Below are positions 20,528 to 20,560 of a stretch of DNA of 64,000 bases, in pieces; position 1 is the stretch's first letter, and every line of letters begins with the position of its first letter. The stretch lies in the NCBI RefSeq assembly GCF_003334815.1, contig NZ_QOWO01000007.1; one strand, 5' to 3'. The DNA is from Escherichia coli. GTDB taxonomy: Bacteria; Pseudomonadota; Gammaproteobacteria; Enterobacterales; Enterobacteriaceae. The position numbers and the translations under genes were made by a program. The notes under the pieces were generated by a model that was given only the letters and a program-made list of their open reading frames with translations, did no database searches and was not told where the DNA came from.

Positions 20528-20560
20528 TAATTGGCGTTGCAGTACATGCAACGCCAATTA
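20528..20560. repeat. perfect 14-bp-stem inverted repeat (TAATTGGCGTTGCA gtaca TGCAACGCCAATTA)
   Basis: Hand-checked base pairing; ends 1 nt before the feaR stop codon. Confidence 0.7.

Follow-up and report, generated by a model that had tools for sequence, protein, structure and literature searches.

A long perfect palindrome at the feaR stop codon of Escherichia coli as a possible 3' stem-loop of Rho-terminated transcripts

Genomic context

In this work, we focused on a palindrome lying between ydbL and feaR in a stretch of Escherichia coli DNA of 64,000 nt, hereafter the window, whose positions are counted from its first letter. ydbL is encoded on the + strand and ends at 20390, and feaR is encoded on the - strand (20562-21467), the two genes being convergent; the + strand operon facing feaR is ydbH-ynbE-ydbL. 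The initial annotation had placed a hairpin between these convergent genes, and the gene coordinates confirm it. Around this site the window is K-12-like, 2 of the 1,041 bases compared being different from those of MG1655. The palindrome corresponds to positions 1446340-1446380 of MG1655, where the annotation of that genome carries no feature.

The element is a perfect inverted repeat of 41 nt in total. Its left arm (20524-20541, TAACTAATTGGCGTTGCA) is 18 nt long and 100% complementary to the right arm (20547-20564, TGCAACGCCAATTAGTTA) with which it pairs, and the arms are separated by a 5-nt loop (20542-20546), read as GTACA on the + strand and UGUAC on the - strand and identical in the five common haplotypes described below. 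The stem core, GGCGTTGC/GCAACGCC, gives the G+C-rich stem-loop expected of intrinsic terminators. The 33-nt hairpin reported initially, with a perfect 14-bp stem and a 5-nt loop, was found at 20528-20560 as described; it is the core of a larger structure, whose extent had been understated, as each arm counts 18 bp and the whole spans 20524-20564.

The hairpin had also been said to abut the feaR stop codon. The adjacency stands, but the stop codon lies within the stem: UAA (20562-20564, - strand) supplies the first three hairpin bases in the feaR mRNA, and this TAA accounts for the last three stem pairs. Perfect symmetry ends exactly at the start of the last feaR sense codon (CGC, Arg301). On the + strand, the palindrome begins 133 nt into the ydbL 3' UTR.

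Several features of the reading frames at this site were recorded. In the feaR frame (20523-20564, - strand), the hairpin starts with UAA, and the in-frame UAA that comes next, 12 sense codons (LIGVACTATPIS) later, coincides exactly with its far end. This second UAA probably follows from the palindrome, both ends of which carry TAA/TTA, and is unlikely to be a read-through signal. A small + strand ORF across the hairpin (ATG at 20502, 19 codons) was rejected; it is not conserved, because the A at 20533 found in the A33 haplotype turns TGG into TAG. Further into feaR, all four bases occur at 20577, the four-fold degenerate third position of the Arg297 codon (T in 70, C in 18, G in 2 and A in 1 of 91 sequences; 7 steps on the local tree).

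The rest of the E. coli-specific ydbL-feaR spacer (20391-20523; z = -1.5 on the + strand and +0.1 on the - strand) showed neither significant structure of its own nor an intrinsic terminator by folding and terminator scan. It shares no homology with the spacers at the related loci L005-L008.

Predicted folding

The inner 33 nt (20528-20560, 14-bp stem) fold at -21.1 (+) and -20.2 (-) kcal/mol, with z of about -7 and none of 200 shuffled sequences being equally stable. For a 49-nt construct, the predicted RNA energy reached -28.9 (+) and -27.7 (-) kcal/mol (z about -8.5), and again no shuffled sequence was as stable. These values bear out the earlier claim of an energy much below that of typical terminators, the stem being about twice as stable as the feaB/tynA terminator of the same window (-14.7 / -15.2 kcal/mol). 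Single-stranded DNA of the palindrome has a predicted folding energy of -20.7 / -20.2 kcal/mol. No perfect hairpin of the 64-kb window is longer, the second place being held by a 12-bp stem; the chance level was set by 60 first-order Markov simulations, whose maxima were 8-13 bp. The stability and length of the 18-bp stem are thus far beyond chance.

In the + strand RNA only, the helix can be extended below the 18-bp stem, over 20509-20575, to about 29 bp with small bulges (-33.8 kcal/mol), the antisense of the final feaR codons taking part through G.U pairs.

Transcription termination

Intrinsic terminators carry a U-rich tract of about 7-8 nt directly 3' of the stem. The 3' flanks of the present stem are GCGGAAUUUACG (+) and AAAACAGAUAUU (-), and a U-tract is found on neither strand. 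The terminator scan did not call the hairpin, nor anything else terminator-like in the spacer. The lone T-run is TTTT at 20521-20524, located 5' of the stem on the + strand and read as AAAA 3' of the stem on the - strand; the initial statement that the hairpin lacks a T-run therefore holds for a U-tract 3' of the stem, on either strand, but overlooks this run on the 5' side.

The feaB/tynA element offers a direct comparison. This canonical bidirectional intrinsic terminator (23221-23247, both strands; AAAAAACGGCACC-T-GGTGCCGTTTTTT) lies 2.7 kb from the palindrome, and its A-tract and T-tract stand on the correct sides. Both elements are palindromic hairpins common to two convergent transcripts; the ydbL/feaR palindrome differs in having no flanking A-/T-tracts, its sole T-run being on the wrong (5') side in the + strand.

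Published data on Rho were retrieved from Adams et al. 2021 (PMC7815308). According to their supplementary file 2, Rho terminates transcription of the + strand, antisense to feaR, in a region placed at MG1655 1446501 (Rho score 4.03, p = 1.3e-5, 800-nt read windows). This position corresponds to 20685 of the window, 121 nt downstream of the palindrome on the + strand. Upstream/downstream reads at this position on the + strand were 54/14 in untreated cells and 87/91 with the Rho inhibitor bicyclomycin (PMC7815308). This region lies in the antisense-feaR stretch at 20565-20700 (+), and 82 C were counted against 58 G over the 300 nt downstream on the + strand. A rut-like C-over-G region together with bicyclomycin-sensitive read-through was thus found on the + strand only. 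The Rho-independence expected of an intrinsic terminator is lacking on that strand (14/54 untreated against 91/87 with bicyclomycin) and, because read-through is full once Rho is blocked, the hairpin is not an autonomous terminator or insulator there. The bidirectional transcriptional insulator proposed in the initial annotation is contradicted on the + strand by these counts: transcripts of the ydbH operon pass the hairpin and are then stopped by Rho.

The 3'-end mapping suggested there as a check was made on published tables; it yielded the Rho termination region downstream on the + strand, and no end at the hairpin itself. In the tables of Adams et al., no 3' end is listed on either strand over MG1655 1446200-1446499, and the locus is weakly expressed. 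No steady-state 3' end was found at the hairpin in the other searchable Term-seq and related supplements. Because expression at the locus is low, these absences count as weak negative evidence, and low expression is probably the reason why no Term-seq 3' end is listed.

Haplotypes and base pairing

Haplotypes were defined by exact-match counts of a 49-nt block, all query records summing to 4,194. Five of them account for 4,145 of the 4,194 locus-bearing genomes (98.8%). The K-12 type, which is perfect, was found in 1,401 genomes and the REL606 type, with a G20533.G20555 mismatch, in 409. Two haplotypes combine T at 20541, which leaves a T.T closing pair, with C-G (880 genomes) or A-T (129 genomes) at 20533/20555. 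In the fifth one, T20547-G20548 is changed to CA (1,326 genomes).

Haplotype alignment places the variation at two locations. The stem position 20533 pairs with 20555, and this pair is G-C in 1,401 + 1,326 genomes, C-G in 880, A-T in 129 and G.G in 409. The other common changes are confined to two loop-proximal pairs, within a variable zone at 20541-20548 (A20541 to T in 1,009 genomes, T20547-G20548 to CA in 1,326), so that 15 of the 18 pairs show no common change. The CA variant produces A.C and C.A mismatches in the + RNA, and G.U and U.G wobbles in the - (feaR-sense) RNA. Every common haplotype folds at -21 to -29 kcal/mol. A formal pair count on four distinct rows gave one pair with a both-sided change and 95.8% of cells paired.

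The stem is no poorer in variable sites than the spacer, since common polymorphic sites number 5 of 36 in the stem and about 21 of 133 in the spacer. The placement of the variable stem sites, rather than their number, is what maintenance of pairing predicts. Selection for perfection would be weak at best, because the G.G mismatch is frequent (409 genomes) and one genome in three has two unpaired top bases in the + RNA.

Changes at 20533/20555 were followed further. The four substitutions inferred at these positions are all transversions without a G.U intermediate; the route runs from C-G through G.G to G-C, and from C-G to A-T directly as far as the 5,426 complete E. coli genomes show, none of them carrying an A/G or C/T intermediate at this pair. 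These make two both-sided changes at a single pair, the kind of paired change known from template-switch quasipalindromes. Polarising the changes with the divergent Escherichia locus L005 as outgroup was given up, this branch being much too long to be reliable. Homoplasy at 20555, examined as a sign of a mutational hot spot, did not differ from the recombination background: the site takes 7 steps on the local tree, and 8 of 79 baseline sites need at least 7.

C-G gave way to A-T among genomes that have one identical feaR::paaX deletion junction in common. The C-G haplotype also occurs with an intact feaR (NMBU_W05E18) and with another deletion (C9). As the junction is common to both haplotypes and C-G is found elsewhere, the change to A-T most likely took place after loss of the feaR promoter and of the 5' part of the gene.

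Deletions at this locus were recorded separately. At least two independent ones span most of feaR and run on through the paa cluster (L001 1683-2261; L013/L117, L014/L116, L111, L112). A 252-nt 3' remnant of feaR is fused to paaY in one case and a 207-nt remnant to paaX in another, the hairpin being kept in both. About 1,000 complete genomes carry hairpin haplotypes found in feaR-deleted lineages.

Distribution among genomes

The locus was detected in 4,194 of 5,426 complete E. coli genomes, at one place per genome. E. coli genomes without the locus have IS1 insertions with adjacent deletions, or the whole region replaced (UPEC 536). The ydbL-feaR spacer (20391-20561; L002, L004, L015) is a repeated IS1 target: three different insertion points were found, one of them exactly in the hairpin loop, after 20542, in strain ETEC1739, and IS1-adjacent deletions reach ynbC or pdxI. 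In UPEC 536 (L003 4387-8075) and strain C9 (L001 2589-3321), the locus adjoins a 7.8-8.6 kb CDS that bears the annotation 'EntS/YbdA MFS transporter'. Such a length far exceeds that of an MFS transporter, and the CDS is probably a multidomain gene that was given a wrong name and belongs to a strain-specific island.

None of the non-E. coli FeaR loci recovered carries the hairpin, which made a cross-species covariation test impossible. Pseudocitrobacter (L006, L007) and Pluralibacter (L008) have ydbL and feaR in the same convergent arrangement, the two stop codons being only a few nt apart. The divergent Escherichia locus L005 has an unrelated, unstructured spacer of 73 nt (z about 0); homology with the window ends at both stop codons, and its stop codon is TGA. 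This strain (SCPM-O-B-8794, labelled E. coli) shows 86.9% identity to the window across ydbH-ydbL and 94.7% across feaR-feaB; given these unequal identities, the two flanks have different histories, with the break at both stop codons. Because these relatives have near-zero or unrelated, unstructured spacers, the gene pair functions without the palindrome. By comparison of these sequences, the palindrome is a lineage-specific acquisition confined to E. coli. The conservation asked about in the initial annotation is accordingly found within E. coli but does not extend beyond it.

Comparison with known elements

Several identities were considered and rejected. The best Rfam matches, to plant or animal microRNA models, scored 23 bits where the gathering threshold is 97. 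A Ter (Tus-binding) site, suspected from GTTTTAACTAA, gave 16 of 23 matches, equal to six other chance sites of the window. A sigma-54 promoter likeness (TGGCG..TTGCA) was dismissed by eye, as the spacing is wrong.

The element is not a REP/BIME or other repeat: it occupies a single place per genome, and no copies of its arms above chance occur in the window. To our knowledge, it bears no resemblance to the REP consensus. It shares with REP/BIME elements the nature of an extragenic palindrome in a 3' UTR, but is single-copy, unlike the dispersed REPs, which have been proposed as partly Rho-dependent terminators and mRNA stabilisers (bioRxiv 10.64898/2026.03.23.713779). Viral contigs gave no match to the palindrome, and a degenerate hairpin pattern searched in metagenomes matched 90 times, always at this same locus, flanked by ydbL and feaR. 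A mobile element was also rejected, as the matches among plasmids and phages seem to come from chromosomal sequence entered under those headings: two 'plasmid' records measure 4.8-4.9 Mb and the single 'phage' record is an unannotated 23-kb contig.

Discussion

We propose, with a confidence a little short of even, that the palindrome is a stem-loop that defines the 3' ends of Rho-terminated transcripts and blocks exonucleases, and that it owes its symmetry to replication template switching. It is most likely an ordinary RNA 3'-end stem-loop without a U-tract and not a new type of element. The transcript of either strand is predicted to fold into a very stable stem-loop lacking a U-tract, as protective 3' stem-loops do, and in the feaR mRNA this stem would begin at the stop codon. 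On the + strand, as the published data show, RNA polymerase runs through the stem and is halted further on by Rho, and it would do so on the - strand as well. PNPase or RNase II, acting 3'-to-5', would then trim the transcript back to the stem, by analogy with known cases, and thereby fix and protect the mature 3' end; the stem may double as a polymerase pause. Perfect symmetry would stem from an inverted duplication followed by re-symmetrising corrections, both by replication template switching. Such a process would be compatible with weak selection for the stem and would not require it.

Rho-dependent 3' ends with stable stem-loops, no U-tract, rut sites just downstream and trimming by PNPase and RNase II have been described (PMC6061677). 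The palindrome resembles this class by its stable stem-loop without a U-tract and, on the + strand, by the excess of C over G and the bicyclomycin-sensitive termination region downstream. It differs by a much longer perfect stem (18 bp, about -28 kcal/mol), by starting at the stop codon on one strand, and in that no steady-state 3' end has been mapped. Among the three roles put forward in the initial annotation, an RNase-protective 3' structure fits best, and we infer this role rather than observe it, because no mapped 3' end was found at the hairpin in the datasets searched. Also against this reading, judging from their spacers, relatives have a working ydbL-feaR pair without the hairpin, and terminating ribosomes would have to melt the 5' arm, since the stem starts at the feaR stop codon.

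Other functional readings address the same hairpin. Ju et al. (2019) reportedly described convergent E. coli gene pairs with overlapping bidirectional terminators. If the palindrome were a terminator of the collision type, it would pause both polymerases, leading to head-on collision at a fixed place and to release; the convergent genes, the same strong hairpin encoded on both strands and its lack of likeness to an intrinsic terminator all agree with this. Elements of this type are described as encoding hairpins, acting as pause signals and being Rho-independent (bioRxiv 10.1101/2022.10.23.513370). The comparison with the overlapping bidirectional terminators of Wang et al. (bioRxiv 10.1101/2022.10.23.513370) thus extends to a hairpin located between convergent genes and unlike an intrinsic terminator, but breaks down over Rho: that class is reported to work independently of it, whereas + strand read-through at the palindrome needs Rho inhibition. 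Moreover, feaR and ydbL are weakly expressed, so collisions would be rare, and about 1,000 genomes with a truncated, promoterless feaR still have the hairpin. We therefore regard collision as improbable.

More doubtful still, and in our view very improbable, is a function at the DNA level, whether as the operator of a dimeric protein or as a cruciform recognised by a structure-specific protein. The perfect dyad symmetry, the invariant loop and outer arms and the strong single-stranded DNA fold (-20.7 / -20.2 kcal/mol) would suit such a site. The protein-binding palindrome suggested initially is nevertheless disfavoured, because the internal pair 20533/20555 varies symmetrically (G-C, C-G, A-T), which preserves complementarity and not the half-site sequence. 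Arms of 18 bp also far exceed the need of a half-site, no second copy was found in the genome, plasmids or phages, and there is no promoter nearby to regulate. We rate just as low the chance that the duplex is an RNase III processing site, where cleavage would destabilise the transcripts (retroregulation) instead of protecting them. The extended + RNA stem of about 29 bp (-33.8 kcal/mol) approaches RNase III substrate length, but 18 bp is at the low end for efficient cleavage. In the p19 double-stranded RNA tables, which report RNase III products, a cluster was seen at the feaR 5' end only and none at the hairpin.

A further alternative, which we consider possible but rather unlikely, dispenses with function: an inverted 18-nt duplication beside the feaR stop codon arose by template switch, was kept symmetrical by quasipalindrome correction, and has only incidental effects on RNA. 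It is favoured by the lineage-specific occurrence of the palindrome and its dispensability in relatives, by the transversions without G.U intermediate at 20533/20555, by the change from C-G to A-T among genomes sharing a feaR::paaX junction, and by a stem no less polymorphic than the spacer by site count. Long perfect inverted repeats are about 150-fold over-represented in E. coli non-coding DNA, which has been attributed to template switching (PMC5941160; PMC8794818), and template switching both creates perfect inverted repeats and corrects quasipalindromes in this species (PMC5941160; PMC8794818; PMC7202029). With the quasipalindromes of Lavi et al. 2018 (PMC5941160) and of Monttinen and Loytynoja 2022 (PMC8794818), the palindrome has in common a long perfect repeat in non-coding DNA and paired, complementarity-restoring changes by transversion swaps with no wobble intermediate; it differs in that the direction toward perfection is not demonstrated here and several common variants reduce symmetry. 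Indeed, the T.T at 20541/20547 (1,009 genomes), the TG to CA change (1,326) and the G.G mismatch (409) all lower perfection. Purifying selection fits as well, 15 of the 18 pairs being free of common changes, and the feaR-deleted lineage retains an intact + strand operon, on whose 3' UTR selection may still act.

As to the symmetry itself, template switching accounts for it most simply, and the symmetry is probably owed to this process. The 3' stem-loop of Rho-terminated transcripts is the reading that we keep for the function. If it is true, the palindrome would add an extreme, well-defined example to the known U-tract-less 3' stem-loops that bound Rho-terminated transcripts, and would explain how defined 3' ends are obtained for ydbH-ynbE-ydbL and feaR without intrinsic terminators.

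There is also a lesser chance, clearly below that of the protective stem-loop, that the locus is a population-scale natural record of template switching that created a perfect hairpin and re-symmetrises it regardless of function. In that case, the compensated C-G to A-T change after the feaR deletion would be a clear bacterial instance of covariation without selection on RNA, and covariation in 3' UTR structures would no longer be proof of function. The 41-bp palindrome offers a natural test case, with five common haplotypes over thousands of genomes, three Watson-Crick pairs at one position and a lineage without one of the host genes. This haplotype set allows selection on RNA structure and template-switch self-correction to be compared experimentally as sources of compensatory change.
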